A stretch of DNA of 64,000 nucleotides from an uncultured bacterium (GTDB lineage Bacteria; Bacillota_I; Bacilli_A; RFN20; CAG-826), in contig CASEKC010000005.1 of the NCBI GenBank assembly GCA_949288485.1, positions 36,658-100,657 of the forward strand, given 5' to 3'. This document shows positions 129 through 32,154 of this stretch, in pieces. How positions within the stretch are numbered: position 1 is the stretch's first letter; every line of letters starts with the position of its first letter. The notes under the pieces are model-generated. The model did not search any database. It was not told the DNA's origin and saw only the letters and a program-made list of their open reading frames with translations. The translations under genes and the position numbers were made by a program.

Positions 129-820
129 TTAAAGATATATAACCATATAGTGTGGCAAAGTTAATTTATTTTCTTCAAATCCAACATTGCCATCGATTAG
201 TTTAAAGGAATCGTTCCATTATTACTTCCTTTAACTTCAATAGGTATGACATCACCATTTTTTTCAATTAAAAATTCTATTTCTATGGTTGAATCATTCT
301 TTTTATAATAGAAAATATTATAATTTTTTTGTTAATTCTTCGGCAATAACGTTTTCATATACTCCACCTTTAGTATTTCCTTTTATTGTTTTGGAAATGA
401 TCGAAACTTGCGTTTCTCTCCCTAAAAAATTACTTAATAATCCACTATCTAACAAGTAAATCTTATGTTGATCTTCTCTGCTATTTGCTTTTAAAGAAAT
501 AATTGGTTCATAAACATTTAAACATTTTCTTACAATATTAACATCTATCAGCCAATTTACACTATCTTTATATTTCCTTCCATACCATTCTTGTTCTCTT
601 TTTCTAAAAGAGTATATTTAAATTTTTTATTTTCTTTTGCTAATTGAGTAGGTACGGAATCAAAAAGTGCCCTAATTTTATTTTTCTTTTCACCTCTTGC
701 ATACTTAGAAATATCATCTCGATAATTTAAAATAATGTTTGATTGAATTTTAATATGGAAAACGTTTTCTACGAAAACGTTTTCCATTATTGATGAACAT
801 ACTTTTAAAAATTTTGGCAA
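129..820 (-). pseudogene. Remnant of an AAA_14/DUF4143-type ATPase. The N-terminal ATPase domain is missing and the C-terminal part is frameshifted.
   Basis: ORF 557..820 reads ..RDDISKYARGEKKNKIRALFDSVPTQLAKENKKFKY... It continues in other minus frames of 129-560 as ..KIYLLDSGLLSNFLG..GGVYENVIAEEL.. and ..IEIEFLIEKNGDVIPIEVKGSNNG.., broken by stops and frameshifts. This pattern is typical of the DUF4143 C-terminal region. No Walker A segment is present. Confidence 0.45.
755..787. promoter_or_regulatory. Two tandem 12-bp palindromes, GAAAACGTTTTC-tac-GAAAACGTTTTC; candidate operator
   Basis: The perfect 33-bp sequence atgGAAAACGTTTTCtacGAAAACGTTTTCcat was read directly. A related copy sits upstream of the ATPase gene at 8859-8891. 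The apparent N-terminus MENVFVENVFH of ORF 557..820 is just this palindrome translated. Confidence 0.4.
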
Positions 821-841
821 TTAACAGCATTATTAAAAACT

Positions 842-1948
842 CTATCTATTGTTTATAATTTTTAGGATATTTTCAATAACATCATTACAATAACGATTAG
901 ATAGTTTTATTATTTTTCCAACATCCTTTAAATCTTTTATTTCTGGTTTACCATTACCATTAACGCTCATTTCATGTTCTAATTTAAAAGGAGTTTTTGT
1001 TATGTCGTAAGCGGGTGATAATACGTATCCTTTTTTACTTTCATCATATAAAAAAGAAAAGTTTTTACCATGATCATCTTTATTCCCGTATAAAACATTA
1101 AAACACATTCTTTTATAGGCTTCTTTTATATTTTCTTCTTTATCGACACATATTGCATTTATCACTTCAAATAGATGAATATAGTCTAAGTTTGGAATTG
1201 TATGAGTTGTTTCGAGTAAAGAAGAAAGAGATATAACGTGAACTCTTTTATTGCCTAATCTATCAAATCTTTTACTCGCAAAATAGCCTTGGCAAATATT
1301 AGAATCAAAAAGTTTAAATTCGTTAACATTAATACCACATCTTTTCGCCAAATTATTGGCATTATATTCTTCTATTCCAATATTATCGCCATCATAACGA
1401 GTTGGAAATTTAATAATCCGCCAGTCTTCACCTATTTTCAAATGAATTTTTGGCCTAGCTCCACCAGAACTTCCTCCTAATTTAAAAATAGTATCGAGAT
1501 CTTGATTTTTAGTTGATCCATCGTATATTTCTTTTGCATATTTAGATAAAAGATCTAAATCAATATTTATGTTCTTCTTCTCTATTTGATTAAATGGTTC
1601 GAAAGAAAGTCCGCCTAAACCACTTTCGTCAATCAACGATAATTTTGTAAGAGGTAATAATTTATTATAATCAACACCGATTTTTTGTAATGCTCTTATC
1701 GTTAAAAGAACACCCCATCCATCTGGAAGACAATCACGAAAAACACCATACAAACCATCAAAGTTTCTTTTTCTATTTATATAGATTTTATCAGATAAAG
1801 GCAGGGAGAAAGGCGAAATAGAAAAACCGTTTTTAATCCAAGCATCATTATATTGAAAAGCGATATTTTCTTCATCTAGTTGAACTAAATAACCTACAAT
1901 TTCATTATTATATTTAATAGTTAATTTATTTATATTGTTTATCTTCAT
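842..1948 (-). CDS. hipA: HipA-family serine/threonine kinase toxin (type II toxin-antitoxin)
   Basis: 368 aa with HipA-like motifs GGSSGGARPK and DDHGKNFSF. It has a 4-nt ATGA overlap with the upstream HTH gene. Confidence 0.8.
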   Translation of the reverse strand: MKINNINKLTIKYNNEIVGYLVQLDEENIAFQYNDAWIKNGFSISPFSLPLSDKIYINRKRNFDGLYGVFRDCLPDGWGVLLTIRALQKIGVDYNKLLPLTKLSLIDESGLGGLSFEPFNQIEKKNINIDLDLLSKYAKEIYDGSTKNQDLDTIFKLGGSSGGARPKIHLKIGEDWRIIKFPTRYDGDNIGIEEYNANNLAKRCGINVNEFKLFDSNICQGYFASKRFDRLGNKRVHVISLSSLLETTHTIPNLDYIHLFEVINAICVDKEENIKEAYKRMCFNVLYGNKDDHGKNFSFLYDESKKGYVLSPAYDITKTPFKLEHEMSVNGNGKPEIKDLKDVGKIIKLSNRYCNDVIENILKIINNR

Positions 1949-2241
1949 TTAATCTCCTTCAATGACAAAATATTAGGATTTTTGAATAAATCATAAAAAT
2001 CTTCTAAACAATCAATTGCTTGAGCTAGTTTAAGGAGAGATGTTAAAGATATTTCTCCACTATTTTCAAATCTTCTAATGCTTGAATAAGAAACACCAGA
2101 TTTAATAGAAAGTTTTTTTTGAGAAAGTTTCAACTCTTTTCTTCTTTTAACAAATCGATTAACTAAATCATATGTAGTTTTTTCTATCGTTAAAACCGAA
2201 ACAAAATCACTTATATCAAATATATTTTTCATAGTGTTCAT
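1945..2241 (-). CDS. hipB: XRE-family HTH antitoxin, HipB-like
   Basis: 98 aa with HTH segment LKLSQKKLSIKSGVSYSSIRRFENSGEISLTSLLKLAQAI. It is translationally coupled to hipA. Confidence 0.6.
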   Translation of the reverse strand: MNTMKNIFDISDFVSVLTIEKTTYDLVNRFVKRRKELKLSQKKLSIKSGVSYSSIRRFENSGEISLTSLLKLAQAIDCLEDFYDLFKNPNILSLKEIK

Positions 2242-2747
2242 ATATTAGCATTTTCTACTAAAAATATCAATAAAGTGATAATATATTAGCAGTTTAATTT
2301 AAACATTTCGCTTTAATATTATCTTTTAAAAGCTTCATTTCTTTCAAATCTATTGCAATAATTAACAGTTTCTAAATTGGCACAAAATGAATAAAATAAA
2401 AAAATATTTGATTTTGAAAAATATAATTCTACTCACATCTTATTAGCTTTAAGGTATTTTTTAATAGAGCGAATGATTCTTATAATTTATATAAATATAA
2501 AAATTCTATGTTTAAAAAGGTTGATTGTTTTGCTTTATCGGCTTGAACTCACTGTTGTTAGTACTAATTTTTTGGTGTAAAAATCTATTTATTGATTATA
2601 AAGATTTAAATTATTTATTATTTGAATTAAGATTATTAGAATCATTTAATTAAAGTAAATACTTAAAGATTAATTTTAAAATTAATATTTATAGTTATAT
2701 TTATTATCACTATCGACAATTGTTTTTATATTTTTATAATAGTTGTA

Positions 2748-3626
2748 ATGAATATAGCGTCTAATGATAAATCATATGACTTTTTAATTAATATTGGCTT
2801 TACTTTAAATGAAGCTAAAGTTTATCTTGCTTTAGTTAAATTTCGTCTATTAAATGGTTATGAAGTAGCTAAAGAATCAGGTGTTTCTAGATCGTTAGTA
2901 TATGATGTATTAAATAGATTAGTCACTAAAGGATTTGTTAATAAAATATTAGGTGAAACAACTTTATATAGCGCTTTAGAATTTGATAAAGTTTTAGATA
3001 TTATTTCTAAAAATACTTATAGTAATATCGTTGAAGCTAAAGAAAGAATAAAAGAAATAGAAACAAATAATAAAAACACTAATTTAATCTATAATGTTAG
3101 TGGTTTTGATAATTTAATATTAAAAGCAAAAGAATTAATTAATAATTCAAAAAAAGAAATATCTTTATCTATTTGGAAAGAAGAATTTGATTTACTTAAA
3201 GAAGATTTAAAAAAAGCAATTAGTAAAGGTATAAAAGTATATATATTTACATTTTCTAACATAAGGTTAGAAAATGCTTATATATATTCTTATAACATTA
3301 AAGACCCGTCTAATTTATTTCCATATAGAAGATTAACTCTTATTTCTGATAGTTTTGATGTATTAATAGGTGAAAATACATCTAAAGAAGCCATATCTTT
3401 ATATACTAATAATCATGCTTTACTCTCTTTAGCTATTGATGAAATTGTTTTAAATATTTTTTGGTATAAATTGATAAAAAAATATGATTTATTAAAAGAT
3501 TGCGAAACTTCTAAAGGCTTTTTAAATACCTTAAATAAATTAAGAAAAGAATTAAACATTGATACAAATATGACAAAAAATTTCTCAGTTTTTTCTTTGC
3601 AAAAAGGAGGGTTATTTAATGAATGA
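2748..3626 (+). CDS. TrmB-family transcriptional regulator
   Basis: N-terminal winged-helix segment GFTLNEAKVYLALVKFRLLNGYEVAKESGVSRSLVYDVLNRLVTKGFV, followed by a TrmB-like C-terminal domain. It overlaps the start of the downstream transporter gene. Confidence 0.7.
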   Translation: MNIASNDKSYDFLINIGFTLNEAKVYLALVKFRLLNGYEVAKESGVSRSLVYDVLNRLVTKGFVNKILGETTLYSALEFDKVLDIISKNTYSNIVEAKERIKEIETNNKNTNLIYNVSGFDNLILKAKELINNSKKEISLSIWKEEFDLLKEDLKKAISKGIKVYIFTFSNIRLENAYIYSYNIKDPSNLFPYRRLTLISDSFDVLIGENTSKEAISLYTNNHALLSLAIDEIVLNIFWYKLIKKYDLLKDCETSKGFLNTLNKLRKELNIDTNMTKNFSVFSLQKGGLFNE

Positions 3627-5049
3627 TGAAAAAGTTGCAAAATTGAAAATTAAAGAAGTTAAAGAGTTAAAAAGAAGAGAAAAACAAGCTAAATTTAAAG
3701 AAAACAAATTCTATTTAATTTATCTTTTCATGATTTTATCAATCGTTTTTATTACAGATGAAATCGCTTCTACTATCGGTATTCAATTTCAATCTAATAT
3801 CATAAATGAATTTTTTGTTGATGGTATGGGTATGACTTATGGGGAAGGTTTATCTTTATCTTCTGCAATAGGTTTTATATCTTATCCAATAACATTACTA
3901 ATCGTTTTTTATAGACCTTTAGCCGATAAATTTGGTCGTAAACCTTTTTTAGTTATCAATACCTTATCTATGGCGTTAGGTTTATTCATAGTTTATCTAT
4001 CAAATAATTATATTGTTTATATGATTGGATCTACTTTAATGGGTTTTATGGTTTCTCATGACATGCAGGCGGTTTATATATTAGAATGTAGCGAACCTAA
4101 AAATAGAGCAAGAAACTATTCAATAATCAAGGCTATTGCTATTTTAGGAACTTTACTTGTGCCTTTATTAAGAGAAACATTAATGAAAAATATTTCTTCA
4201 AATTGGCATATAGTTTATTTAGTTCCGGCCATTATTGGTTTTGTTTTATCTTTTCTCGCCCTTTTTTGTGCTAAAGAAACTCATACCTTTTTATTAAAAA
4301 GAATTAAATATTTAAAAACTCCAATTGAAGATAGAGAAAAAGCCAGTAAAGAAGAAAAACTTAATAATTCTCAAGGTGGAATTATTAATGGCTTAAAATT
4401 TGCTTTTAAACATCATCAATTAAGATGGTTAATAATTGCCTGTACCTTCTTTTATCTAGCTTCTTTAGCTACTGCTACTTATTCTACTGTTATGGCTGAA
4501 TCAGCCTTAATGAGTGAAGAAGAAATCACAATGGCTTTATATTTATATCCAGTTGGTAATGCATTATCTACTTTAGTAACCGGTTTTGTATCGGATAAAT
4601 TTGGAAGAAAAACAACGGTAATTGCTATGGGTAGCGCCTCTATTGTAAGCTATAGTTTATTTATCGCTTCTAGCATGTTAGGTTGGACACCATTTTTAAC
4701 TGGTTTTGCTATTGGCGCATTTATGGGATGTTATTGGGGAGCCGGAGATACAATTGGTTCAATTATGTTCTCCGAATCTTCACCTACTAATTTAAGATCA
4801 TCAATAACCGTTATTAATACTTTATTAAATGGCGTTGTTGGTGGAGTTGCTTCTATAATTTCAATGATTGTTGTTCCTTTAATTCCACCTGTTGGTTTCG
4901 GTTATTTCTATCTTTGCTTAACAATTCCTGGCTTAGTTGGAGCAGTTATTGTTATGTTAAAATGCATCGGGGAAACTAAAGGATTAGATTTATCAAAGGT
5001 CACTGGACTTGAATGGGATAAAAAGAAAGAGGATAAAATAAATGGATAA
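3619..5049 (+). CDS. MFS transporter
   Basis: 476 aa with about 12 hydrophobic segments. MFS loop motifs are present, FYRPLADKFGRKP and VSDKFGRKT. Confidence 0.75.
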   Translation: MNDEKVAKLKIKEVKELKRREKQAKFKENKFYLIYLFMILSIVFITDEIASTIGIQFQSNIINEFFVDGMGMTYGEGLSLSSAIGFISYPITLLIVFYRPLADKFGRKPFLVINTLSMALGLFIVYLSNNYIVYMIGSTLMGFMVSHDMQAVYILECSEPKNRARNYSIIKAIAILGTLLVPLLRETLMKNISSNWHIVYLVPAIIGFVLSFLALFCAKETHTFLLKRIKYLKTPIEDREKASKEEKLNNSQGGIINGLKFAFKHHQLRWLIIACTFFYLASLATATYSTVMAESALMSEEEITMALYLYPVGNALSTLVTGFVSDKFGRKTTVIAMGSASIVSYSLFIASSMLGWTPFLTGFAIGAFMGCYWGAGDTIGSIMFSESSPTNLRSSITVINTLLNGVVGGVASIISMIVVPLIPPVGFGYFYLCLTIPGLVGAVIVMLKCIGETKGLDLSKVTGLEWDKKKEDKING

Positions 5050-5833
5050 AAGTATTTTTGAATTAAAAAAAGATGAGAAACCATTAGAAAATATCGATAG
5101 AACATGTGGTTTTGCTTCTATTTTAAAAGAGGTAGGAGTTATTGGAGATTCATTAGCTAGTGGTGAATTTGAAGCCACAGATGAAAGTAATAATATTACA
5201 TATCATGACATGTATGAATATTCATGGCCTAGTGTTCTTGAAAGAATTACTGGGACTAAATATTATAACTATTCTCGTGGAGGAATGACTTTTAAAGAAT
5301 TCTACGAAACTTGGGCCGATAAAAATAATTTTTGGGAAAAAAGACAATCATATATTGTTGCACTAGGTAATAATGATTTATTTGTCTTTAATCATAATGT
5401 TGGTTCTCATCTTGATATAGATGTTCTTCATCCTGAAAATAATAAAGATACGTTCTTTGGTTATATGGGAAAAGTCTTATCAAAACTTAAATCATTAGAA
5501 AAAGATGCTCGTATCTTTTTAGTTTCAATGTTACTTGATAATGAATTAAAAGAAAAAGACGAATTAACTCTATATGTTTTAAATGAAATGAAGGAAGTAA
5601 TAAAATTATATTCTTTTACATATTTAATAGATTTAACTACATATGGTGTTATATATAATAAAGAAGTAAGAAGTAAATATGCATTAGGATATCATCCTAA
5701 TGCAATGGGATATTATATTTATGCTTTAATGATAGGAAATTATATTGATTATATTATTAAAACTAATTATAAAGATTTTTTCGAATTACCTTTTATTGGT
5801 AAAAACTTACATAATTCTTATTTAGATAAATAA
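5042..5833 (+). CDS. SGNH/GDSL-family hydrolase
   Basis: Block I GVIGDSLASGE, block III GNNDL, and a histidine-containing C-terminal region. It overlaps the end of the MFS gene. Confidence 0.65.
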   Translation: MDKSIFELKKDEKPLENIDRTCGFASILKEVGVIGDSLASGEFEATDESNNITYHDMYEYSWPSVLERITGTKYYNYSRGGMTFKEFYETWADKNNFWEKRQSYIVALGNNDLFVFNHNVGSHLDIDVLHPENNKDTFFGYMGKVLSKLKSLEKDARIFLVSMLLDNELKEKDELTLYVLNEMKEVIKLYSFTYLIDLTTYGVIYNKEVRSKYALGYHPNAMGYYIYALMIGNYIDYIIKTNYKDFFELPFIGKNLHNSYLDK

Positions 5834-7441: not shown

Positions 7442-8817
7442 CTAAATGTAAATTTTATCTTCGATTTCTTTTAAAGAATCTTCAAAACCACTAGCACTGA
7501 AAATATAAAAATATTTATTTTTATAGCTAGAAAAAGGTTTTATAAAAACATTTTCTAGCATTTTAAAATAAATATTTTTTCCATTTTTTGAAGAAGAAAA
7601 CTTAACATCACTTATTAAAAGATTATCGTTATCTTCGCTAACTATATTTATTTCAACACTTCTATTTAATAAAGAGTTATTTTCAATATTAAAATTTTCA
7701 AAATTTAAAAATAAACCTTCTAAGTTTCCATTTTTATTTAAATATTCTAAATAACTAATACATAATTTTTCAAAATAATGTTCTATAAAATTATTAATAG
7801 CATTTTTATCTATTTCTTTTAATATTTTTCCATAACCACTTTTAATTAGTTCTACTTTTCCTCTAATAAAACGATAATAAAAAGCTAACATTGGATCTAC
7901 TATTTCATAATTGATATGACGTTTTGATTTAAAAGTTGTTCTTTTAATCAAAACGTCATTTTCAATTAATTCATCTATATATTTATATATTTTATTTACA
8001 TCTTCTTCTAAAAATGTAGCAATTTCTTTAGCACTAGTAAAATTATTAGATATTGCAACTATTATTGAAGCATTTAACCCACTTGAAGAAAGATCACTAG
8101 TAATAATTTTACTTGGATCATCACTAAAAATTGCACTTTGATTATAAAAAAGTAAATCTAAATTCTCATCAAAACTCTTTTTAGTGTTAATTGAAGATAA
8201 ATATAATGGAAAAGTGTTAGTTAAAATTAAAGGTTTAGCTTTTTCTTTTAAATCACTTACATCTTTTAAAGCTTCTAATGCTTCATCAAAAGATAATTTT
8301 TTTAATTTTAAAGAAAAAGTATGTCTTTGATAAAGTTCATAATTATATTTATTTATTTCTCTTTCAATAAAAGTTACATTACTTCCTGTTAAAATAATTG
8401 TAATTTTTCTTTTTTTAAAAAGAAGATCAATCGCTTTTTGTAAAGATGTGATAAAATCACTCTTTTTTCTTTTCCCATCTCTAGTTAATAAAATTGAAGG
8501 ATATTCATAGATAAATAAAACACCTTTTTCATCTTTAAAATATGAATCAATTGCTATAAAAAAAGAATACCAATCTTCAAAAACACCTACATTTAAACTC
8601 GTTTGTTCATTAAAATCATTAGAAAATGCTTTACGATTAATATTGTCTTCACTATCAGTAGCAAAAAAAGATAATGATTTTTTACCTTTTAAAAACATTT
8701 CCATTAAAGTAGATTTACCTATTCTTCTTCGACCATAAATATATCCAAACTCAAATTTATCCGAATTATAAAATTCTTCAAGTTCTTTTAATTCTTTTTT
8801 CTACCAATATAATTCAT
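7442..8817 (-). pseudogene. ATPase of the PF01637/DUF234 type with a frameshift in an A6 run near its 5' end
   Basis: ATG at 8817, preceded by ggagat, gives MNYIGRKK and then a stop. Shifting one base at 8795-8800 restores ELKELEEFYNSDKFEFGYIYGRRRIGKSTLMEMFLKG.., in frame with ORF 7442..8704. It is a paralog of the intact gene 21222..22604. Confidence 0.65.
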
Positions 8818-8858
8818 TATTTTATCTCCATGAACTTTTTATAATAGAAAAAAAGTTT

Positions 8859-8891
8859 ATGGAAGACGTCTTCCACGAAAACATTTTCCAT
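8859..8891. promoter_or_regulatory. Degenerate copy of the double-palindrome box (GAAGACGTCTTC-cac-GAAAACATTTTC)
   Basis: The sequence atggaagacgtcttccacgaaaacattttccat lies about 40 bp upstream of the ATPase start codon. It has the same architecture as 755-787. Confidence 0.35.
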
Positions 8892-8916
8892 AAACTATAT
8901 GAATCTACAAATTAGA

Positions 8917-9681
8917 TTATTTATTAGTTAAATAATCTTTATAAATATTAAAATAATTATCAAAAAAAGAACAAATACTACTCTTTTTATATATTTTGTA
9001 TTTTTTAAATAATCTTTAACTGTATCAATCGCTATTTTATGAGCTAAAGAGATTGGAAAAGAAAATCCACCAGTAGAAATTGAAGGAAAAGCAATTGAAG
9101 ATAATTTCATTTCTTCACACTTTTTTAAACATGATAAATATGAATTTTTTAAATCTTCTTTATCTTTTGTTTCTATTTTCCCAAACATTATTTTAGGTCC
9201 GACAGTATGAAAAACATATTTAGCAGGTAAAGAATAGTCTTTTGTTTCTTTACATTTTCCGTTTTCTTCATCTTTATTATTATTTTCTATTTTCATTATT
9301 TCTATTAGATCTCTTCTTATTTTTAATCCAACATAAGAAAAAATAATGTTATCAATATAGTTATGAAGAGGATAAAAACAACCCAACATCTTTTTATTAG
9401 CAGCATTAACTATTACATCAATATCTTTTAAAAAAGTAATATCACCTTTAAATATAGGGATTTTATCATTGATAAAATCTAAATCATTTATAGTTATTAA
9501 CTTTCTTTTATCATTTATTTCTTTAAATCCTTTTTCTTCATTTAAATAATATTCTTCATCTATACCTATAGGCATAGTTATATTCATTAACGCTCTAAAA
9601 GCATCTTTTTTTAATAGGAATATTTTTATAAACGTGATTATATTCAATTAAATAATTAATATAAAATTCGATAGATTCCAA
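8917..9681 (-). pseudogene. Macro-domain protein (ADP-ribose hydrolase type) with two homopolymer frameshifts
   Basis: The core reads ..IFKGDITFLKDIDVIVNAANKKMLGC.. and ..HTVGPKI..IAFPSISTGGFSFP... The N-terminus LESIEFYINYLIEYNHVYKNIPIKK (TTG at 9681 after aaggag) is out of frame at the run 9606-9612. The expected C-terminus ..DNYFNIYKDYLTNK is out of frame at the run 8962-8968. Confidence 0.6.
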
Positions 9682-9724
9682 TAATTACTTCTCCTTTATC
9701 ATTAATAATTAATATATTGGATAA

Positions 9725-10966
9725 TTATCCTAATAATTTAACAATTTCTTTCCTTGTTATTCCGTTATTTTCTTTAATATACCTAGCAAGCAAAAATATT
9801 TCATTTTTATATTTTTTTAATCTTCTTTTAACAAAACGATATTTTTTCTTAATAAATTTATTTGTTTTTATCGCAAATAACTTATTTTCAAATTCAGAAG
9901 TTTCATCAAGAGAATAAGAATTATCTCTTAAAGAAAAATAGTTTAAACCATTAATCATTGTTCGATTTACTAATTTAAAAGAAACTTTATAAGCTCTTTC
10001 TAAATCTTCATCTGCTCCTACACTATGGTAATTAAAAAATAATTCTTCAGCGACAATTCCTGCTAAAGAAACTTCAACATTATCAAGTCTTGTTTCAAGA
10101 TCATCGATACTATCAAAGTTTGCATTATATGTTCTACCACCATCTTCATTGCAAATAACTCTTAAAACATCAAGTTTTCTTGTTAATTTATATAAATATA
10201 AAGCGTGACCTGCTTCATGAATTGCAACAAAATCATCGACTTTAAAATTATCATTATTTTTAATACATCCAGAATCTAAAAAAGTATATTCATTAATAAA
10301 ATTTTCAAGTGTAGCATTTTTACCATATCTAAAATAAACATTGTTAAAAATAGTTCTAATTAAACTAATTGGTTCATGTCTTAAATTTAAAGTTAATTCT
10401 TCTATCTCATAATCATCTAATTTAAAATCTCTAATTTCTAAAAATTTAGAAATTATTTCTTTTAATTCATTTTTATCAGTAATTCGAATATTAAATTTTC
10501 TATCAAAACGACCTTCTCTAAGTAAAGAATAAGGTAAATTATCGATATCATTTGCACTAGCTAAAGTTAAAACATTTCCTTCCTTATTAAAACCATCAAG
10601 TTCCATTTGAAGAACTCTTTCTAATTTTGTATCTTTTGCAACTAATCTATCTAATTCATCAATAACTACTATTGCATTTTTTTCTAATCTCGCTTTTTTA
10701 TAAGTAGCAAGTAAAACTTCATCTAAATTTTCACTATCTCCTTCGATTATAAAAACTTTATAATCGAATGATTTTGCAAATTCTCTTAATAATAATGTTT
10801 TACCATATCCAGGATCACCATAAAAAAGAATTCCTTTAGGTAAATATTCTTTTTTTTCGTTATCAGATAATAATTCTTTATTTAAATACCAACTTCTTAC
10901 TTCATATAATTCATCTTTAATAGCTTTATAACCATAAACTTTGTTTAAAAAATTATTTCTTTCCAT
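9725..10966 (-). CDS. Soluble FtsH-like protein: AAA+ ATPase fused to an M41-type zinc metalloprotease, with no membrane anchor
   Basis: Walker A GDPGYGKT, Walker B VVIDELD, second region of homology ..REGRFDRKF.., and zinc motif HEAGHAL. There is no N-terminal hydrophobic segment. Confidence 0.75.
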   Translation of the reverse strand: MERNNFLNKVYGYKAIKDELYEVRSWYLNKELLSDNEKKEYLPKGILFYGDPGYGKTLLLREFAKSFDYKVFIIEGDSENLDEVLLATYKKARLEKNAIVVIDELDRLVAKDTKLERVLQMELDGFNKEGNVLTLASANDIDNLPYSLLREGRFDRKFNIRITDKNELKEIISKFLEIRDFKLDDYEIEELTLNLRHEPISLIRTIFNNVYFRYGKNATLENFINEYTFLDSGCIKNNDNFKVDDFVAIHEAGHALYLYKLTRKLDVLRVICNEDGGRTYNANFDSIDDLETRLDNVEVSLAGIVAEELFFNYHSVGADEDLERAYKVSFKLVNRTMINGLNYFSLRDNSYSLDETSEFENKLFAIKTNKFIKKKYRFVKRRLKKYKNEIFLLARYIKENNGITRKEIVKLLG

Positions 10967-11099
10967 AGATTTATTTTTCTCCTTTCTTTTATAAATAAAT
11001 TCATTCTTTTTAATAAAGAAGAATTATATTTTTAATAAAAATTGATATTTATTTATTAAAAATAAAACATATTTAATATGAATTAATTTTCCTAAATTT

Positions 11100-11135
11100 A
11101 AAGTCGTTATATTTTTTTATATCTATAACGACTTT
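11100..11135 (-). terminator. Hairpin with a 12-bp stem downstream (minus sense) of the RNA candidate
   Basis: aaagtcgttata (11100-11111) pairs with tataacgacttt (11124-11135). The flanks are A/T-rich but there is no clean U tract. Confidence 0.4.
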
Positions 11136-11149
11136 AAATTTTAGTTAAA

Positions 11150-11730
11150 ACTTTATAGGCCTTCGCCTTACTCTTAATTAAATTTTGTTTATTCGGCCAC
11201 TAATCGAAGTTAGCCCGAGCGTATAAGAGCGACTTATACACTACTAACTCCATCTTCTAAGATAAGAAGATTAATAGATTAGGCTAGATTTCCTAGCAAC
11301 TTTCACTAAACGTCGGAAGTAAGTTTTTAAAACAATCCAATCGTTCACCTTTGCAGCTGAGTCAGATTTAGCTACTCGTACATTTTGTTTGCAATCCTTA
11401 TAGTTTAATTACTTAAACGTCACCTCAGAGATCTTTAATGAGTTTGCCACTTACTTGGTAGTCTCTCACACTACTTGCAGGATGGCGGGCTAAGCTAGCT
11501 ACTATTTGCCACTTATAGATCCGGATCGCTCATTGCCTTAACTAGAGAATTTAAAAAGAGCACTTCTTACTTCAAGGCTAATCCAATAACCTTCCTTATA
11601 TATTTCTATATAAGGTGTTTGCCATTTAATAGGTATCCCTATTAAACCACTCACAAAGTAAGAATCCTGACGGTCTGTAAGACCAACTTCATCAGGTTAC
11701 AGCAATATTGTAATGCTCAACGCATAAAAT
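11150..11730 (-). ncRNA. Large structured ncRNA candidate of about 570 nt. Class unassigned; ROOL/GOLLD/OLE-like in size and context.
   Basis: No ORF track entry (all listed ORFs are 60 aa or longer) falls within 10967-11832. The local G+C is far above that of the surrounding intergenic DNA. There are many local helices and a repeated UGGCAAA motif. C exceeds G on the plus strand, which favours a minus-sense RNA. A hairpin follows at 11100-11135. Its 3' module is duplicated at 56580-56671. Confidence 0.55.
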
Positions 11731-11771
11731 TAATATACTTTTATTTTTATTATTTTTTGTAGATAAATTTA

Positions 11772-11800
11772 TTGATAAATATCGTATTTTTTATTAATAT
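11772..11800 (+). promoter_or_regulatory. Sigma-70-like promoter for ORF 11833..12831
   Basis: TTGATA (11772-11777), a 17-nt spacer, then TAATAT (11795-11800). Confidence 0.35.
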
Positions 11801-11832
11801 TATATTTTGAAGAGTAGATAAAATATAAACTT

Positions 11833-12831
11833 ATGAACAACAAATATAAAGTAATGTTATCTTATTACACATATTCCACAATATTAAATGATATTGATGC
11901 GTTTCGTTTTTATAAAAATAACGGAGATACCAACAAAAATAAGTTTATCAATAAACTTATTACAAATTATTATGAAATAGTTAATTTATCAATTAAAAAA
12001 CTTGAAGACAATCTTCTTTCTTTATTAAAAGACATTAAAAATAAAGAAGAGTTAGTTAATGATATTTTAAAAATAAAAGAAAGAAATGATGATTCTGATA
12101 GTAAAAAAGAATATGAATTAACTTTTATATCAACTAAAGAGTCTAATAATGCGTTACTAGATATAGAATATTCTAATTATTCTTATATTTTTACTATGAG
12201 TGGTTATTTAAGAAAATTATTTAATGACTATGCTAAGTTAAATCAAGATGAAAGAGAAAGAATAATTTTTAAAAGTGAAATAGATTTAATAAATACAGCT
12301 ATTAAAAATAATAAAAAGATTTTTTTTAAAGTAATTACTAAAAAAGATGAAGAAATTATCGAAGAAAAACACGAAGTATCACCATTAGGTATATTTAATT
12401 CTAAAGATAGACAATTCGCCTATTTAATTTATTATACTTCTTCTACCTACAATGTTATTAACTTATATAAATTAGTTGATTTAAGAATATCTAGAAACTT
12501 TAAAGATGAACTATCTTCATCTTTAAATGAAAAAATAAATGGTGATTTAGATAAAAACGATCCTCAATTTATTAATTCTCCAATTATAAAATGTAAAATA
12601 AAATTAACTAAAAAAGGTCAAAAAATGTTTACTAAAATCTTTATTAATCGTCCTAAACCATTAAAAATAGAAGATGATATATATTATTTTGAGTGTTCAA
12701 TAAATCAATTATTTCAATATTTTTCTCGTTTTGGTAGCGAAGCATTAGTATTAGATAATGAAAAATTAACTAATAGATTATTTAATTTTTTTTATTTTGG
12801 ATATAAAAATATTAAAAAATATGAAAAATAA
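11833..12831 (+). CDS. WYL-domain-like protein with a WCX-like C-terminus and a possible N-terminal ribbon-helix-helix
   Basis: The central segment KKIFFKVITKK..HEVSPLGIFNSKDRQFAYLIYYTSSTYNVINLYKLVDLRISRNF fits the WYL core pattern. The C-terminus IIKCKIKLTKKGQKMF..YYFECSINQLFQYFSRFGSEALVLDNEKLTNRLFNFF fits the WCX pattern. The N-terminus KVMLSYYTYSTILNDIDAF..FINKLITNYY is RHH-like. These assignments are by eye only. Confidence 0.55.
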   Translation: MNNKYKVMLSYYTYSTILNDIDAFRFYKNNGDTNKNKFINKLITNYYEIVNLSIKKLEDNLLSLLKDIKNKEELVNDILKIKERNDDSDSKKEYELTFISTKESNNALLDIEYSNYSYIFTMSGYLRKLFNDYAKLNQDERERIIFKSEIDLINTAIKNNKKIFFKVITKKDEEIIEEKHEVSPLGIFNSKDRQFAYLIYYTSSTYNVINLYKLVDLRISRNFKDELSSSLNEKINGDLDKNDPQFINSPIIKCKIKLTKKGQKMFTKIFINRPKPLKIEDDIYYFECSINQLFQYFSRFGSEALVLDNEKLTNRLFNFFYFGYKNIKKYEK

Positions 12832-15429: not shown

Positions 15430-18225
15430 TTATTTGCTTAACAATATATTTATATCGGAGACTTCTTTATTAAAGTGATCGCATAAATACGATAAGAAAC
15501 ATTGTTTGAAGTATTTTCCTGTTTCACTTGTTAAATCATTAATATCAACATCGTTACCAGCTCGATGGTCTTTCTTTAATTTATTTATTCTTAAATCATT
15601 TGTGTCCATAAAATAAAAAACTTCATAAGCATCATCATTTTCATCTTCAAAACCACATTCGATTCTATTTTTATATTTTCTAAAAGAAAATAAGCCTTTT
15701 TTGTAATTTTTATGTCCATTCATTTTCTCAATTTTAAAACTATCTAAATTAAAATGTTTTACTAAATCATCAAACCATGTTGGATTATCATTGATGGCAA
15801 AGTCATTAGTTTGTTTCTTTTCAGTTAAATCAATTAGTTTTTTTATAATATCTTCATTTTGTTTTAAGAATAAAGTGAAAGAGCGAACAAAATATCTAAG
15901 CATTTCGCTATTATCTTTTTCTAAATCAACAGCTTCCCAATTAGATTTATATAAAACAGTGAATTTTTTTGTTAATAATTCATAAAAGGCTGCATATTCT
16001 GTTCCTTTATCATCTTCAAAGCCACATTCAATATTATTTGAGCGCACTCTAAAGGCAAAACCATTTTTTACATATGCTTTATATTTTTTGTTCAACCAAA
16101 TACTATATCTAGAAGAATCAAAATAGGTACGTAATTTAGAGAACCAGTCATCTTCATTCGTTGTTTTTTGAACTCTAATTTTATTTTCGTTAGTACAATC
16201 AAAATAATTTAATTTAGTAATCAATTTATCACTTAGTGCTGGTTGTTCCCCAATGCTTATATTTTCAAATGAATTAATCATCTTGAGAAACTCCTCTTCC
16301 GTGATAGCAGTAAAATCTCTAAACCATCTATCGTACATAAATTGAAATAATTCTTGTTCTCTTTTATAAATATCGAATAAAGTCCAATTCTCATTTGTTG
16401 ATGCAACTTTTTGTGCAGATCTTGAACCATAACAATAAGCATATTTTTCACTCTCAAATGAGGCAGTTCTTTTTGTTTTGAAACTAAAATTTTTAAGACT
16501 GCTGTTTTCGCCTTTTGATAATAAAAGTAAATTTCCTAAGGAATTTGTTATTTTATTAATTTTTGCTTCATCGTGATTTAACGGAGATAATACAATTTGC
16601 CAGTATTCACACTTCTCAGTATTTTGAGGCAAAATATGTTCAATAGAGTTCATATTGACTGAAGACCAATCGACGCTATGGGTTGTAACATTTGATACTT
16701 GTAAATATTCATCATATTCATAAAGAAAATATTTTAAACTATCCCGATTATAAAAAAATGATTGTTTATCTCTTAAATAATTATTAAAGTTTTCAAACTC
16801 ATTAAATAAATAATTTTCTAAATTATTTTCATTTATATAAACACCAATTGTATCCAGTGTCTCATAAAGAATTTTTTGTTTATTTTCATTCTTAGCTTTT
16901 ATAAGTTCTCTTGCATGTTTAATTAATGAGCTGTAATCATTTTTATTTTGACCAATACATTTTCTAAAAAATAATGAAAATTCAAGTTTTTTATAAAACT
17001 TTAACTTTTCTTTAATAGATAAATCATTATCTCCATAAAAAGCCATTATTGTAGATTTGGCAAATTTAGTAGATGTTATTCTGTTTAATTTGGTTAAGTA
17101 TTTTTTTTCATCTAAATATTCTTCCCCTTTTAAAAGCTTTGCATCAGGATATTTTTCTATAGGATTATTAATAATTCCCCAAATTTCACTATATTTATCT
17201 AAACTTTTTATATATGAATCAATGGCATTATATGCTGTAGCAAGTGTTTCGTTACTATTGAGGCTAGAAAATATTGGATTTTCAATGCTGAACTCTTCGT
17301 TTAATATTTCCGAAACGTAAGTATCACCTCTTCTTTTGCTCAAAGAATTATGATATATAAACCAATGCGCTTGTAAATATTCATCATCGTTTAAAAATGT
17401 ATTCTTATAAGATAAGTTTTTATAAATATTCTTCCATACAAAGTTAATTTTATCTCTTAGTAAATCACCTTCATTAACATTAAAAAAGGAAGATAAATAC
17501 ATAAGTCTATTTTTTAACAATTCTAAATTTGATAATTTTTTTCCTCTATTATTCATTGTTTCAAAGGTAACTCTTACATCAAAATCTTTTGTAACGAAGT
17601 AAATATTAAATATCAATCTATGAAGAATTACATCTAAAATCTCTTTAACAATATCAGAATTTTTAGTTAATTTATCATCAATAAACTTTTTGCAATTATC
17701 GAGATTTTTAAGATATATGTTTAACATATCTTTCTCCACGAGATTGTTTAAGTAAATTCTATTCTCAAAGAAAGATCTTGTATCACCATCGTTTTTATTT
17801 GAATAAAAAAATCTATAAATATTTCCTTTTTTTAAATATTCACCTTGCAGATTTTCATTATTTTCATCTTCTAAAAATTTAAATATAGATGCTAAAAAAA
17901 TAATTATTGTGGTAAGTCTTTGCTGACCATCGACAACATAAAAAGCGTTATAACCATTCAAATATTCAAAATTCTTTTCTTGATCGTCCATTTCCTCTAA
18001 AGTTAACATTCCAGTATAATGTTTACTTATTTTATTTGGATTCTTAAGAGCTCTAATTATGTCGTTCCATAAATCGTTAACTTGTTTGTTCGATTCCCAA
18101 GCATAACCTCTTTGATAATCTGGTATGCGAAAAACGTTTGGTCCGTAATTTTCTGTATCACTTAGAAGTGCTTCAACAGTAACTAAAGAGTTGTTTCTTC
18201 TTTTTTCGTCGAAATAATTTGCCAT
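15430..18225 (-). CDS. GmrSD-like type IV restriction enzyme (DUF262 N-terminal, DUF1524 HNH-like) with a duplicated C-terminal module
   Basis: DUF262 motifs IPDYQRGYAW and VDGQQRLTT. A DUF1524-like segment reads ..IEHILPQN..GNLLLLSKGENSS... Two C-terminal repeats each contain ..(N/R)IECGFED(D/E)... Confidence 0.8.
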   Translation of the reverse strand: MANYFDEKRRNNSLVTVEALLSDTENYGPNVFRIPDYQRGYAWESNKQVNDLWNDIIRALKNPNKISKHYTGMLTLEEMDDQEKNFEYLNGYNAFYVVDGQQRLTTIIIFLASIFKFLEDENNENLQGEYLKKGNIYRFFYSNKNDGDTRSFFENRIYLNNLVEKDMLNIYLKNLDNCKKFIDDKLTKNSDIVKEILDVILHRLIFNIYFVTKDFDVRVTFETMNNRGKKLSNLELLKNRLMYLSSFFNVNEGDLLRDKINFVWKNIYKNLSYKNTFLNDDEYLQAHWFIYHNSLSKRRGDTYVSEILNEEFSIENPIFSSLNSNETLATAYNAIDSYIKSLDKYSEIWGIINNPIEKYPDAKLLKGEEYLDEKKYLTKLNRITSTKFAKSTIMAFYGDNDLSIKEKLKFYKKLEFSLFFRKCIGQNKNDYSSLIKHARELIKAKNENKQKILYETLDTIGVYINENNLENYLFNEFENFNNYLRDKQSFFYNRDSLKYFLYEYDEYLQVSNVTTHSVDWSSVNMNSIEHILPQNTEKCEYWQIVLSPLNHDEAKINKITNSLGNLLLLSKGENSSLKNFSFKTKRTASFESEKYAYCYGSRSAQKVASTNENWTLFDIYKREQELFQFMYDRWFRDFTAITEEEFLKMINSFENISIGEQPALSDKLITKLNYFDCTNENKIRVQKTTNEDDWFSKLRTYFDSSRYSIWLNKKYKAYVKNGFAFRVRSNNIECGFEDDKGTEYAAFYELLTKKFTVLYKSNWEAVDLEKDNSEMLRYFVRSFTLFLKQNEDIIKKLIDLTEKKQTNDFAINDNPTWFDDLVKHFNLDSFKIEKMNGHKNYKKGLFSFRKYKNRIECGFEDENDDAYEVFYFMDTNDLRINKLKKDHRAGNDVDINDLTSETGKYFKQCFLSYLCDHFNKEVSDINILLSK

Positions 18226-20688: not shown

Positions 20689-21030
20689 TATTCTCCTTTC
20701 AAAGATTTTTTCATCTTTATTAATAATTCCTTAGCGAAGCTTTTGTCTTTTTCAGTTAAATTTTGAGTTCTTAAAATATTCTCTAAATTTTTAATTCTCT
20801 CTTCAATTTTTGTTACATGATTTCGTCCGCCAATTAATATGCCCGTTTTTATTTCTTCACTTGCAGCAGCCATGGCGCTTCCATCACCTATTGTTGCCCC
20901 CTCTCTATATAGCTCCCCAATTAAATTTTTAAGTTTTTGATTTTCTACAGAGTTTTGTATTTCTACACCAACATCTGAAACTCTTTTTCCCGCAAAAAGT
21001 TGAAGATCTAGTGTGAATACATTAATTTTA
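20685..21030 (-). pseudogene. Orphan C-terminal fragment of a polymorphic-toxin-like protein
   Basis: The open frame has no plausible start upstream: ..LFAGKRVSDVGVEIQNSVENQKLKNLIGELYREGATIGDGSAMAAASEEIKTGILIGGRNHVTKIEERIKNLENIL... This resembles conserved C-terminal regions of LXG/Rhs-type toxins. It is followed by a small overlapping ORF. Confidence 0.35.
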
Positions 21031-21098
21031 CAAAGACTTAACTATCTAGTTAAGCAATATTACTTAGATTGTAAATGATAATTGGTATCTCTAATTTT

Positions 21099-21209
21099 AT
21101 ACAAATAGATTTGTTACAAATTAATTTGTAAAAATAAAAAATAAGACTTTATTAATAAAATTTTTTTAGTTATAATACAAATAAATTTGTTACAAATTAA
21201 TTTGTAAAA
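21099..21209. promoter_or_regulatory. Two 35-bp direct repeats, each carrying two ACAAAT-NN-ATTTGT palindromes and flanking a TATAAT box; candidate operator array
   Basis: atacaaatagatttgttacaaattaatttgtaaaa (21099-21133) and atacaaataaatttgttacaaattaatttgtaaaa (21175-21209) differ at one position. A TATAAT lies at 21171-21176. The second repeat ends 4 nt before the RBS of ORF 21222. Confidence 0.45.
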
Positions 21210-21221
21210 GGAGATGATGTT

Positions 21222-30353: not shown

Positions 30354-30383
30354 TATAGTTCGAATCAAAAGTGAATAATTATA

Positions 30384-30420
30384 AAAATGGTCCTCCACAT
30401 ACGGCTGACCATTTTTATTT
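30384..30420 (+). terminator. Rho-independent terminator after the nuclease gene
   Basis: aaaatggtc (30384-30392) pairs with gaccatttt (30407-30415) and is followed by a T-rich run. Confidence 0.6.
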
Positions 30421-30691
30421 ATTATGAGTTTTATTTGATATTTTAGATATTTACGAAATATTCAAACCTTCCAATTATAAATATCACAAATTCTTTTTTG
30501 ATTAAAAAGAAAATATATTAAAATATGTATAGACTAAATTCGTAAAAAACGAATTTTACATTAATTTTAAAGCCTCTCAAAAGATTTTTAATTGACATTT
30601 TTACAACTTAAGTTGACATCGGCATACAAAGTTTATTTTTTACCATTGCTAACGATGGTGGAATTCGACGGTTAGATTCACTTAAAACGAA

Positions 30692-30808: not shown

Positions 30809-30943
30809 GATACCCTATAGCTATTTAATAACTATCAAATAAAAATAAATTATCGAATTTTATGCTTTTTTTTAAATTTATTTTCATTTATTAATAATTG
30901 TTTTTACCTTATGATGCTACGAAAATGCTACGAAAATTCATCT

Positions 30944-32143: not shown

Positions 32144-32154
32144 TTTTTACCTCT

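Follow-up and report, generated by a model that had tools for sequence, protein, structure and literature searches.

ROOL RNAs, WYL1 and RNA-repair operons

ROOL is an ornate RNA class of about 580 nt (Weinberg et al. 2017, PMC5737381). Cryo-EM of members other than the one described here reveals a homo-octameric nanocage (Kretsch et al. 2025, PMC12286853). A typical, though not a defining, setting for ROOL is a phage or prophage near tRNA arrays. The cages are reported to contain disordered internal linkers and assemble without protein, and no protein partner had been identified as of the 2025 paper (PMC12286853). The structure of ROOL has been solved and its function is unknown; a protein that is paired with the RNA and has relatives encoded next to RNA-repair genes is a testable clue to that function. 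The neighbor of the ROOL on L. salivarius pMP118 is a 90-aa HTH regulator and not a WYL protein (PMC5643018).

WYL1 is an accessory protein of type VI-D CRISPR-Cas13d systems (PDB 6OAW; PMC5935466, PMC6547453). RspWYL1, the closest solved relative of the protein discussed below, binds ssRNA with high affinity and far better than dsDNA, and its RHH is described as atypical (PMC6547453). Makarova et al. (2014, as relayed in PMC7790460) group WYL and CARF domains together, as regulators that bind ligands and act in prokaryotic defence systems. By the titles of their PDB entries, DriD, PafBC, CapW and BrxR are transcription factors, three of them in complex with single-stranded DNA or RNA polymerase.

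The Salmonella rsr-yrlBA-rtcBA operon brings together RtcB, a Ro-type protein and structured non-coding RNAs, and it is induced by tRNA-cleaving toxins (PMC7790460). The gene for RtcR is divergent to rtcBA, and its product binds tRNA halves that carry a terminal 2',3'-cyclic phosphate (PMC7790460).

A full-length ROOL RNA gene

The window (the whole stretch of 64,000 nt that was analysed) contains an 866-nt gap, 10967-11832, whose longest ORF is 38 aa. An earlier note, made from the sequence alone, had described this gap as ORF-free and as the site of a minus-sense structured RNA resembling ROOL, GOLLD or OLE. Both descriptions prove correct, and Rfam now supplies the class:

11140-11720, minus strand: ROOL RNA gene (RF03087), full length, by Rfam match, fold z and covariation

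The match scores 216.2 bits against a gathering cut-off of 99.1 (E 1.5e-47) and covers model positions 1-574 of 574, giving an untruncated RNA of 581 nt. ROOL is the sole Rfam family above its gathering score for this block; thus, the RNA belongs to a known class and does not define a new one. Phage ROOLs score higher (276-363 bits vs 216). The minus strand of the block folds with a minimum free energy of -168.6 kcal/mol (z = -5.68), which none of 100 shuffles equals. In an RNAalifold consensus of 11 ROOLs (nine linked to a WYL1-like gene and two from phage contigs), 77 of the 106 consensus pairs have changed at both bases and still pair. Two helices that the note had picked out by eye, CCUGAUG..GGUC-UUACA-GACC..GUCAGG and GGAGUUAG...CUAACUUC around GUGUAUAAG-UCGCU-CUUAUAC, correspond to helices that the Rfam alignment shows as conserved in ROOL, and both covary across homologues. 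The UGGCAAA motif is indeed present three times in minus sense (plus-strand tttgcca at about 11447, 11506 and 11618); wide conservation among relatives is limited to the third of these.

That the block is instead decayed coding sequence or another RNA class is vanishingly improbable, and nothing was found in favor of it. Decayed coding sequence is ruled out by ORFs of at most 38 aa, the full-length ROOL match and the extensive covariation. GOLLD, OLE, group II intron, RNase P and tmRNA are likewise rejected, as only ROOL reaches its gathering score.

The block is enriched in G+C (0.365 over 11140-11720, vs 0.257 for the whole window and 0.17-0.25 for flanking DNA). However, the statement that it is far richer than any other intergenic DNA was somewhat overstated, since the best 200-nt segments of three other gaps reach 0.355-0.38, compared with 0.42 in the ROOL gap and 0.445 in the tRNA gap. 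The excess of C over G on the plus strand is real, but it is not diagnostic because the adjacent minus-strand genes show the same skew. The supposed proximity to tRNAs does not hold: they lie at 60230-60517, about 48 kb from the block. By blastn, the window ROOL has no match in phage records, and a phage-type ROOL has none in plasmid records.

Two further features lie on the 3' side of the RNA:

11091-11144, minus strand: hairpin directly 3' of ROOL; the perfect 12-bp stem is 11100-11135
9725-10966, minus strand: soluble FtsH-like AAA+/M41 protease gene, co-directional with and downstream of ROOL

The 12-bp hairpin already recognized at 11100-11135 is thus part of a longer structure, with a folding energy of -21.7 kcal/mol and without a clear U-tract. 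A hairpin of different sequence also lies 3' of ROOL in six related loci (L011, L012, L009, L211, L213 and L014). The hairpin is probably a terminator or an insulator ahead of the protease gene. The protease has AAA and Peptidase_M41 domains, a Walker A motif (GDPGYGKT), an intact HEAGH motif and an N-terminus too short for a membrane anchor. Among the eight loci in which ROOL adjoins a WYL1-like gene (see below), the protease gene is common to the window and L009 only (54% identity) and is absent from the other six. It is possibly an accessory rather than a core part of the module.

A homologue of the CRISPR accessory protein WYL1

The gene on the other side of the RNA is divergent to it:

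11833-12831, plus strand: WYL1-family protein of 332 aa, with two RHH motifs, a WYL beta-barrel and a C-terminal dimerisation-type domain

By sequence and predicted fold, this protein is a true homologue of WYL1, in agreement with the RHH/WYL assignment and the resemblance to WYL1 proposed earlier. It matches the PADLOC model for CRISPR-associated WYL proteins (E 7e-9), and phmmer aligns its residues 29-309 with residues 73-369 of WYL1 (PDB 6OAW; E 2.1e-7). The two proteins are about 19% identical. The AlphaFold model (pLDDT 90.4, pTM 0.82) predicts strand-helix-helix units at residues 4-64 and 93-134, the barrel at 161-223 and the C-terminal domain at 251-329. Its top Foldseek match is again 6OAW, over the full length (E 4.8e-16, TM 0.69), followed by PafBC, DriD, CapW and BrxR. 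Against such wHTH-WYL-WCX proteins, only the WYL and C-terminal parts of the model align (TM 0.25-0.42); the N-terminus is RHH. Within it, an extreme N-terminal strand, K-x-K-V-x-L, is conserved in a pattern that may be that of the DNA-reading ribbon of a canonical RHH. A Pfam screen of 37 window ORFs revealed neither Cas13d nor any other cas gene, and no relatives of the protein were found in IMG/VR viral contigs.

The ROOL/WYL1-like pair is a conserved module

ROOL and the WYL1-like gene make up a two-gene module, which is conserved in one clade of low-GC Bacilli, uncultured organisms of the gut and rumen. The two lie head to head, 112-132 nt apart, in eight loci (the window, L011, L012, L009, L008, L211, L212 and L213), whose proteins are 41-100% identical and fall into a single clade of a neighbor-joining tree. 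The flanks of these loci are unrelated and include an Mntp gene, an FprA-like gene, a HAD hydrolase, HipA/Fic and Schlafen/HipA. In L014, ROOL lies 2.5 kb from the WYL1-like gene. The note's proposal of a dedicated RNA/WYL-protein module is therefore borne out. The co-occurrence that it suggested testing is seen for ROOL and the WYL1-like gene (eight loci), whereas the FtsH-like gene is linked in two of the eight. The pairing is new; the RNA, being of a known class, is not. No paper was found in which ROOL appears together with WYL or with RtcB, nor was a published report of a ROOL/WYL1-like link.

The converse does not hold. A DNA pattern for the 3' domain, specific to ROOL, gave a sample of 51 viral and at least 120 metagenome loci. 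Among the matches listed, tblastn finds neither a WYL1-like gene nor RtcB in any of the 171 independently sampled ROOL loci, and a DUF2828-vWA gene in four. Thus, the link is lineage-specific and most ROOLs do not need the protein. As a general partner of ROOL, the WYL1-like protein is ruled out by the same 0 of 171 among the matches listed.

It could be asked whether the linkage has any functional meaning, or whether the two genes simply travel together through a variable defence and mobile region. The region of the window is full of such genes (GmrSD, type III restriction-modification, HipAB, a split integrase and a transposase), close relatives have rearranged flanks, and most ROOLs are without the protein. 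However, the divergent geometry stays constant within 112-132 nt across all eight loci, down to 41% identity and amid unrelated flanks; the separated arrangement in L014 and a second, independent co-occurrence (locus L020, below) also speak against mere co-travel, which we regard as improbable.

The shared control region

The 112 bp between the RNA and the start codon contain three candidate elements:

11759-11766, plus strand: box 1, GTAGATAA, operator-like, 39 nt from the ROOL model 5' end
11814-11821, plus strand: box 2, GTAGATAA, operator-like, 12 nt ahead of the start codon, followed by an imperfect inverted copy
11772-11800, plus strand: candidate sigma-70-like promoter toward the WYL1-like gene, TTGATA-17-TAATAT, by consensus match only

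The candidate promoter overlaps a palindrome, GATAAATATC, at 11774-11783, which is conserved or compensated in L008, L211, L212 and L213. A promoter scan gave no enrichment over shuffles, and for this reason no transcription start site is claimed.

The 7-8-mer of box 1 lies exactly 55 nt upstream of box 2 in the window and in L011, L008, L212 and L213. More generally, two direct boxes recur at roughly 40 and 95 nt upstream of the start codon with a spacing of 55 nt (43-45 nt in some clades), and their sequences are clade-specific (GTAGATAA, TGACCAC, TGACCCC, TGCCCACCG and TGTACCCA). Within the window, box statistics are weak because both the boxes and the DNA are AT-rich: a search for TGTAGATAA that tolerates one mismatch gives 63 occurrences vs about 39 expected, GTAGATAA has six further exact copies, and single-locus repeat tests are mostly non-significant. 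The window by itself gives no statistical support; the case for the boxes thus rests on the recurrence of their spacing across loci and on a duplication in L020.

Relatives beside RtcB and Ro-like genes

Across 30 related loci, the WYL1-like gene has ROOL, RtcB or Ro-like genes as its neighbors. At least 17 other loci at species level show one of three arrangements: RtcB divergent to the WYL1-like gene, a DUF2828-vWA gene together with RtcB, or a TROVE protein. Most relatives of the protein have no ROOL within 6 kb and face the RNA ligase RtcB; among the more distant ones, the facing unit may also be an operon for Ro-like proteins that includes RtcB and Y-RNA-like modules. The 64-kb window itself contains no RtcB or Ro-like gene, neither a TROVE nor a DUF2828-vWA protein being present.

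One locus, L020, joins these contexts. Here the WYL gene is followed, divergently, by a DUF2828-vWA gene, a VapBC pair, a terminator, ROOL, a small ORF and RtcB, in this order. The 12,963 nt of the locus contain precisely four copies of the box ATGACCAC, arranged as two pairs that each have the 55-nt spacing; one pair precedes the WYL gene, and the other lies directly upstream of ROOL. The copies of the pair share only the boxes and two short flanking motifs.

The ROOL of L020 adjoins the VapBC cassette and could have come in with a mobile insertion.

The Ro-like context is more varied. L215 and L018 have a TROVE match above cut-off beside a 620-nt non-coding gap. No diverged ROOL or Y RNA was detected (Rfam, E < 0.1) in the large upstream gaps of L215, L018, L001, L003, L210, L214 and L017. 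DUF2828-vWA proteins adjoin tandem CAGCAAAC stem modules, one of which encloses a tRNA-like element, and these modules are candidate Y RNAs. For DUF2828-vWA and TROVE proteins, BLASTP aligns the MIDAS motif only, hhalign gives a probability of 1.7%, and a profile search of the PDB finds no Ro60 match. Homology between the two is thus unproven, and DUF2828-vWA proteins are called Ro-like by architecture and context only.

A proposed role in an RNA-damage response

We propose, with a probability of roughly 55%, that the WYL1-like protein is a nucleic-acid-sensing regulator that controls ROOL within an RNA-damage response, in a role like that of RtcR for rtcBA. Its N-terminal RHH would bind the 8-bp, clade-specific boxes within the 112 bp that the two genes share as a control region, one box lying at the protein's own promoter and the other at the ROOL promoter 55 bp away. 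The WYL domain would sense a nucleic acid, with broken or single-stranded RNA as the most plausible ligand. Box binding and ligand sensing together would then turn ROOL on or off as part of the damage response, and ROOL would fill the slot that Y-RNA-like modules and RtcB hold in related loci. The proposal builds on the conserved linkage, the RtcB/Ro setting of the family, the L020 locus and the arrangement of the boxes, and it has precedents in RtcR and in the WYL transcription factors. Against it stand the absence of RtcB and Ro-like genes from the window, the 0 of 171 among the ROOL matches listed, the weak box statistics of the window and the possible arrival of the L020 ROOL in a mobile insertion. 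DNA binding is not guaranteed, given the preference of RspWYL1 for ssRNA and its RHH, described as atypical (PMC6547453).

That same preference suggests another role for the protein: it could bind ROOL directly, whether as a chaperone, as a factor in assembly or gating, or as part of a ribonucleoprotein. Such a role could replace or accompany transcriptional regulation, and adjacency would then reflect co-expressed subunits. RspWYL1 binds ssRNA tightly and dsDNA poorly (PMC6547453), and the WYL1-like protein has, in its predicted structure, the whole three-domain architecture of RspWYL1. The pair is tightly conserved, and the disordered linkers of the cage might offer single-stranded RNA (PMC12286853). 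However, such a role leaves the fixed-spacing, clade-specific DNA boxes unexplained, most family members face RtcB with ROOL absent within 6 kb, and ROOL cages form without protein and with no known partner (PMC12286853). A direct partnership is accordingly possible, though on the unlikely side, and the conserved boxes, as sequence features, would favor transcriptional control over, or alongside, a direct RNA-protein complex such as the note envisaged.

If the protein is a regulator of this kind, a more specific picture can be drawn tentatively, and we consider it less probable than regulation as such. ROOL may be the non-coding-RNA arm of the WYL1-regulated RNA-damage response: on detecting broken RNA, the protein would turn on ROOL and, in related genomes, Ro-like proteins, Y-like RNAs and RtcB. 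The target of the cage might then be either damaged RNA or the attacking RNase, and the cage might serve as a decoy, a scaffold or a compartment for sequestration, for instance, in a way similar to that in which a Y RNA works with Ro60.

Significance

The present work adds a conserved cellular (non-phage) module that joins ROOL to a putative WYL1-type nucleic-acid sensor. It also places the family of this sensor beside RtcB, Ro-like proteins and Y-RNA-like elements, and identifies one locus (L020) in which ROOL lies just upstream of RtcB behind the sensor gene's own operator-like boxes. Together, these findings provide a concrete hypothesis for the function of ROOL. If the RNA-damage-response reading is true, ROOL would for the first time have a regulator, an inducing condition and a physiological context, and the reading would suggest that the CRISPR accessory WYL1 and the RNA-repair-linked proteins belong to one family as separate branches. 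The loci also show that the WYL1 family has a branch outside CRISPR systems, which bears on the origin of the Cas13d accessory protein.

Comparison with known systems

The RNA of the window is like known ROOLs in its length of about 580 nt, full-length match, multi-junction architecture, covarying helices, lack of coding capacity and own terminator-like hairpin. Unlike phage ROOLs, it resides in a cellular chromosome and not in a phage tRNA array, the nearest tRNAs being 48 kb off; unlike other ROOLs, it is paired with a WYL1-like gene, an arrangement seen in 0 of 171 other ROOL loci among the matches listed.

The protein shares with WYL1 the domain order RHH1, RHH2, WYL barrel and C-terminal domain, along with sequence homology (E 2e-7). 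Its partners differ: those of the window-type family are ROOL, RtcB or Ro-like genes, and no Cas13d was found among the 37 window ORFs screened.

As in the RtcR/Salmonella RNA-repair operon, the related loci have a putative sensor-regulator gene divergent from RtcB, Ro or structured-RNA genes. Unlike RtcR, the putative regulator is RHH-WYL rather than CARF-AAA+-HTH, and no sigma-54 logic is evident. In contrast to the Salmonella operon, the window clade keeps the RNA only, without a nearby RtcB or Ro gene, and that RNA is ROOL and not a Y RNA.

BrxR, CapW, DriD and PafBC resemble the WYL1-like protein in the fold of the WYL domain and C-terminal extension, in repeated operator-like boxes and in a gene that adjoins the unit probably under its control. 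The differences from these four are that the putative DNA-binding module is RHH rather than a winged helix-turn-helix, that the likely ligand is RNA rather than ssDNA, and that the probable target is a non-coding RNA gene.

A ROOL RNA beside a WYL1-like gene

In the window, the FtsH-like gene and the ORF for a WYL1-like protein are separated by 866 nt in which the longest ORF is 38 aa, in agreement with the earlier note, which had called this gap ORF-free and proposed that it encodes a structured minus-sense RNA.

9725-10966 (-), FtsH-like AAA+/M41 gene
11140-11720 (-), ROOL RNA (Rfam RF03087)
11833-12831 (+), WYL1-like gene, 332 aa

An Rfam scan of the whole window at gathering thresholds gave a single non-tRNA match, ROOL, which covers model positions 1-574 of 574 with 216.2 bits (cut-off 99.1, E 1.5e-47); the comparison with Rfam models that the note had suggested thus identifies a full-length member. 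The minus strand also folds stably (MFE -168.6 kcal/mol, z = -5.68, with 0 of 100 shuffles folding as well), and together these results bear out the proposed RNA. All the hairpins that the note had named occur in the sequence, as do its three UGGCAAA copies and the 12-bp hairpin at 11100-11135, and the Rfam alignment shows the two helices drawn by eye to be ROOL helices. Covariation, likewise proposed as a check, is extensive: an RNAalifold consensus of 11 ROOLs (9 linked to the WYL1-like gene, 2 from phage contigs) contains 106 pairs, and 77 of these show compensatory double changes. The full-length match, the 38-aa maximum ORF and the covarying pairs rule out decayed coding sequence.

The G+C content is 0.37-0.40 in 200-nt windows of the block versus 0.17-0.25 in flanking DNA, and 0.365 across 11140-11720 versus 0.257 window-wide. 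The claim that it lies far above other intergenic DNA stands as to rank but not as to margin: the block is the richest non-tRNA gap, but three others reach 0.355-0.38 locally (tRNA gap, 0.445). ORF-poor gaps at 20689-21221 and 30354-30943 reach 0.38 in a 200-nt window over a background of 0.26; they have no gathering-level Rfam match and could contain unclassified RNAs or other small genes.

ROOL was described in 2017 as an ornate RNA of ~581 nt that is frequent in prophages and near tRNAs (PMC5737381). In Ligilactobacillus salivarius its abundance equals that of 16S rRNA, yet it is non-essential (PMC5643018; PMC12286853). Given the Rfam assignment, the window RNA is a new member of an already named class, and ordinary in that sense.

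The WYL1-like protein

The 332-aa product has no Pfam match above threshold. It matches the PADLOC CRISPR-associated WYL model (E 7e-9) and, by sequence, one PDB protein, 6OAW, the WYL1 of type VI-D CRISPR (E 2e-7, residues 29-309). Its AlphaFold2 model, built with 26 homologues (pLDDT 90.4, pTM 0.82), comprises strand-helix-helix units at 4-64 and 93-134, a beta-barrel at 161-223 and an alpha/beta C-terminal domain. The top Foldseek match is again 6OAW (E 4.8e-16, TM 0.69, full length), followed by PafBC, DriD, CapW and BrxR, where the match is restricted to the WYL and C-terminal part. RspWYL1 has exactly the same architecture (PMC6547453), and this shared fold and domain order indicate that the protein had been read correctly as RHH, WYL and WCX. 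A Pfam screen of 37 window ORFs shows no Cas13d or other cas gene. This is a small protein family, with 44 clusters at 90% identity. Its members are listed as WYL domain-containing proteins of Acholeplasma and Bacilli MAGs, and the species-representative genomes contribute further ones from Erysipelotrichaceae and Anaeroplasma MAGs (gut, rumen).

RspWYL1 has a far higher affinity for ssRNA than for ssDNA or dsDNA (PMC6547453), a property that favors the main rival to the regulatory role proposed below, namely that the WYL1-like protein binds ROOL itself. The two roles may coexist, for example as feedback.

Conservation of the pair and its control region

Rfam and tblastn were applied to the genomic context of 30 distinct loci. 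ROOL lies immediately upstream of the WYL1-like gene, divergent and 112-132 nt from the start codon, in eight of them (the window, L011, L012, L009, L008, L211, L212 and L213), with protein identity to the window of 41-100%. The flanks of these loci are unrelated (Mntp gene; FprA-like gene; HAD hydrolase; HipA/Fic; Schlafen-AlbA2/HipA), and in the close relatives L011 and L012 the window genes occur in altered order with ROOL and the WYL1-like gene still together. At L014 (51% identity), three metabolic genes separate the WYL1-like gene from ROOL, which is 2.5 kb upstream; at L210 and L214, there is no ROOL within the sequenced stretch around the gene. A neighbour-joining tree groups the ROOL-linked loci in a single clade. 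Thus, the idea of a dedicated RNA/WYL module survives. The linkage suggested for the FtsH-like gene does not, since that gene follows ROOL in the window and L009 only and so falls outside the core. A hairpin of varying sequence recurs 3' of ROOL in most loci, which fits ROOL being its own transcription unit.

In clade after clade, the region before the WYL1-like gene has a G/C-containing 7-12-mer as its longest direct repeat. These operator-like boxes lie some 95 and 40 nt upstream of the start codon, with a spacing of 55-56 nt (51 nt in L001; 43-45 nt in L031-33), and their sequence is clade-specific.

Box sequences upstream of the WYL1-like gene
TGACCAC(T): L001, L003, L020, L022
TGACCCC(T): L015, L021, L031, L033
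TGCCCACCG: L018, L215
TGTACCCA: L032
GTAGATA(A): window (11759 and 11814), L011, L008, L212, L213

In the ROOL clade, a conserved palindrome, GATAAATATC (window 11774-11783), overlaps a TTGATA-17-TAATAT promoter-like site facing the protein gene. Locus by locus the repeats are mostly not significant, and the window boxes are AT-rich; the weight of the boxes comes from the recurrence of the same geometry with different sequences and from a duplication at L020.

Relatives beside RtcB, Ro-like and Y-RNA-like neighbours

Family members at 29-37% identity have other neighbours: RtcB, DUF2828-vWA plus RtcB, or a TROVE gene.

Units divergent from the WYL1-like gene
RtcB RNA ligase, ~150 bp away: L002, L005-7, L019, L023, L025-29, L031-33
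RtcB, 500-bp gap: L003
DUF2828/DUF7788-vWA then RtcB, as an operon: L015, L020, L021, L022 (four Erysipelotrichaceae MAGs)
TROVE (Ro60) gene above the Pfam cut-off, preceded by a 620-nt non-coding gap: L215, L018

Because hhalign gave a DUF2828-TROVE homology probability of 1.7%, "Ro-like" is used for DUF2828-vWA as a label of architecture and context only. The leader before these genes (~500 nt) contains about four tandem stem modules, each ordered as 5' stem strand, (A/G)CAGCAAAC motif, insert and complementary 3' strand.

Leaders between the WYL1-like gene and the DUF2828-vWA/RtcB operon
L021, 5458-5900 (-)
L022, 5448-5900 (-)
L020, 5495-5900 (-)
L015, 5514-5900 (-)

The first module of L021 encloses a tRNA-like element at 5732-5804 (ARAGORN tRNA-Phe, anticodon AAA; Rfam tRNA 54.5 bits). 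It resembles the tRNA-like Y RNAs that are encoded alongside bacterial Ro60 and RtcB (PMC4201824; PMC7790460). No Rfam Y-RNA family matched the modules; they look like candidate Y-RNAs of a YrlA-like kind. The ~620-nt gaps between the WYL1-like and TROVE genes (L215 1284-1900; L018 1033-1710, -), 94% identical to each other, hold four repeated hairpin modules (e.g. CGAAG...GCGG...GGGUUACUUCG; fold z -2.3), with no Rfam match at E < 0.1. A ~400-nt non-coding stretch at L003 (7501-7900), between RtcB and the box pair, likewise has none at E < 0.1.

A bridge locus, L020

One of the four Ro-like loci also carries ROOL.

Features of L020
6001, start of the WYL1-like gene (+)
4046-5494 (-), DUF2828-vWA gene
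between DUF2828-vWA and the toxin pair (-), 186-aa ORF
2682-3307 (-), Phd-like antitoxin and PIN toxin (VapC-type), an insertion immediately upstream of ROOL within the Ro-like/RtcB operon
~2640-2670 (-), terminator hairpin
1887-2406 (-), ROOL, 192 bits
between ROOL and RtcB (-), small ORF with its own ribosome-binding site
350-1555 (-), RtcB

The box ATGACCAC occurs exactly 4 times in 12,963 nt, in a single orientation, as two pairs with 55-nt spacing, one at 5903/5958, ahead of the WYL gene, and one at 2493/2548, immediately upstream of ROOL. When the two regions are aligned, just four elements prove to be preserved, namely the boxes, a 12-nt motif (TAAAATTCTCAT) and an ATAGTGNACTAT motif, and the spacers and the sequence beyond have diverged. 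This pattern indicates selection on putative regulatory elements, and the ROOL-RtcB unit lies behind the same putative control elements as the putative sensor's own divergent promoter. The position of the Phd/PIN pair is suggestive because ectopically expressed VapC reportedly switches on the rtcBA operon of E. coli (PMC7790460). Pure hitch-hiking, in which ROOL and the WYL1-like gene would merely travel together, is unlikely given the L020 arrangement and the constant geometry of the pair across loci.

ROOL loci sampled from the RNA side

A pattern from the ROOL 3' domain alone matched 51 viral and at least 120 metagenome loci among the matches listed; 4 of 4 tested with Rfam are true ROOLs (276-363 bits). 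Neither a WYL1-like protein nor RtcB is encoded in any of the 171 ROOL loci among these matches, IMG/VR viral contigs yielded no relatives of the WYL1-like family, and the L. salivarius ROOL neighbour is a 90-aa HTH regulator (PMC5643018). Therefore, the ROOL-WYL1 module is lineage-specific and cellular, and no general property of ROOL. DUF2828-vWA is encoded in 4 of the 171 listed loci (L049, L080, L094 and L154), whose ROOLs score 276-363 bits. In the first three, tRNA genes surround ROOL, and DUF2828-vWA is encoded downstream on the same strand, past the tRNA array; in L154, the DUF2828-vWA gene directly adjoins ROOL, also downstream on the same strand. L094 additionally has a tmRNA-like match.

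Other features of the window

The 64-kb window is a variable region with many defence and mobile genes.

842-2241, HipAB
7442-8704 (-), DUF234 ATPase, matching PADLOC PDC-S27 (candidate system)
8928-9647 (-), Macro-domain protein
15430-18225, GmrSD type IV enzyme, also matching PADLOC HEC-06
23797-25066 (+), split tyrosine integrase, two adjacent ORFs (N-terminal SAM-like domain; catalytic domain)
31227-34283 (-), rve transposase/integrase gene, then five tandem XRE paralogues (HTH, 95-105 aa each)
38281-39615, Dam-like methyltransferase with DUF7226
48234-52331, type III restriction-modification Res/Mod pair

The split integrase, probably a pseudogene with a frameshift, would mark an old integration event. 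A sixth small ORF near the XRE array (30944-31213) has no Pfam match. Downstream of ROOL on the same strand, the FtsH-like, Macro-domain and DUF234 ATPase genes (7442-10966, -) could form a defence or RNA/ADP-ribose-processing cassette. The FtsH-like protease has intact Walker A/B and HEAGH motifs and is predicted to be soluble, lacking a membrane anchor; AAA-M41 and Macro genes occur near ROOL elsewhere in L009 only.

Proposed role and comparison with known systems

The most economical reading is that the WYL1-like protein is the sensor-regulator of the divergent unit. Its N-terminal RHH would read the boxes, its WYL domain would sense a nucleic-acid ligand, and the divergent unit, whether RtcB, Ro-like proteins with Y-like RNAs and RtcB, or ROOL, would be controlled together with the regulator's own gene. 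ROOL would then belong to an RNA-damage regulon, in the slot taken by Y-like RNAs in sister clades. The module offers a testable handle on the question of ROOL function. No paper was found that combines ROOL with WYL or with RtcB, and the wider family context of the pair is new relative to the literature found.

The pair itself is a variation on known kinds, namely ROOL and the sensor-regulated RNA-repair locus. RtcR, encoded divergently from rsr-yrlBA-rtcBA, is activated by tRNA halves with 2',3'-cyclic phosphate ends (PMC7790460), and the WYL1-like gene is likewise divergent from the unit that its product would control. DriD, PafBC, CapW and BrxR are WYL-domain proteins described as transcription factors in their PDB entries, the role proposed here for the window protein.
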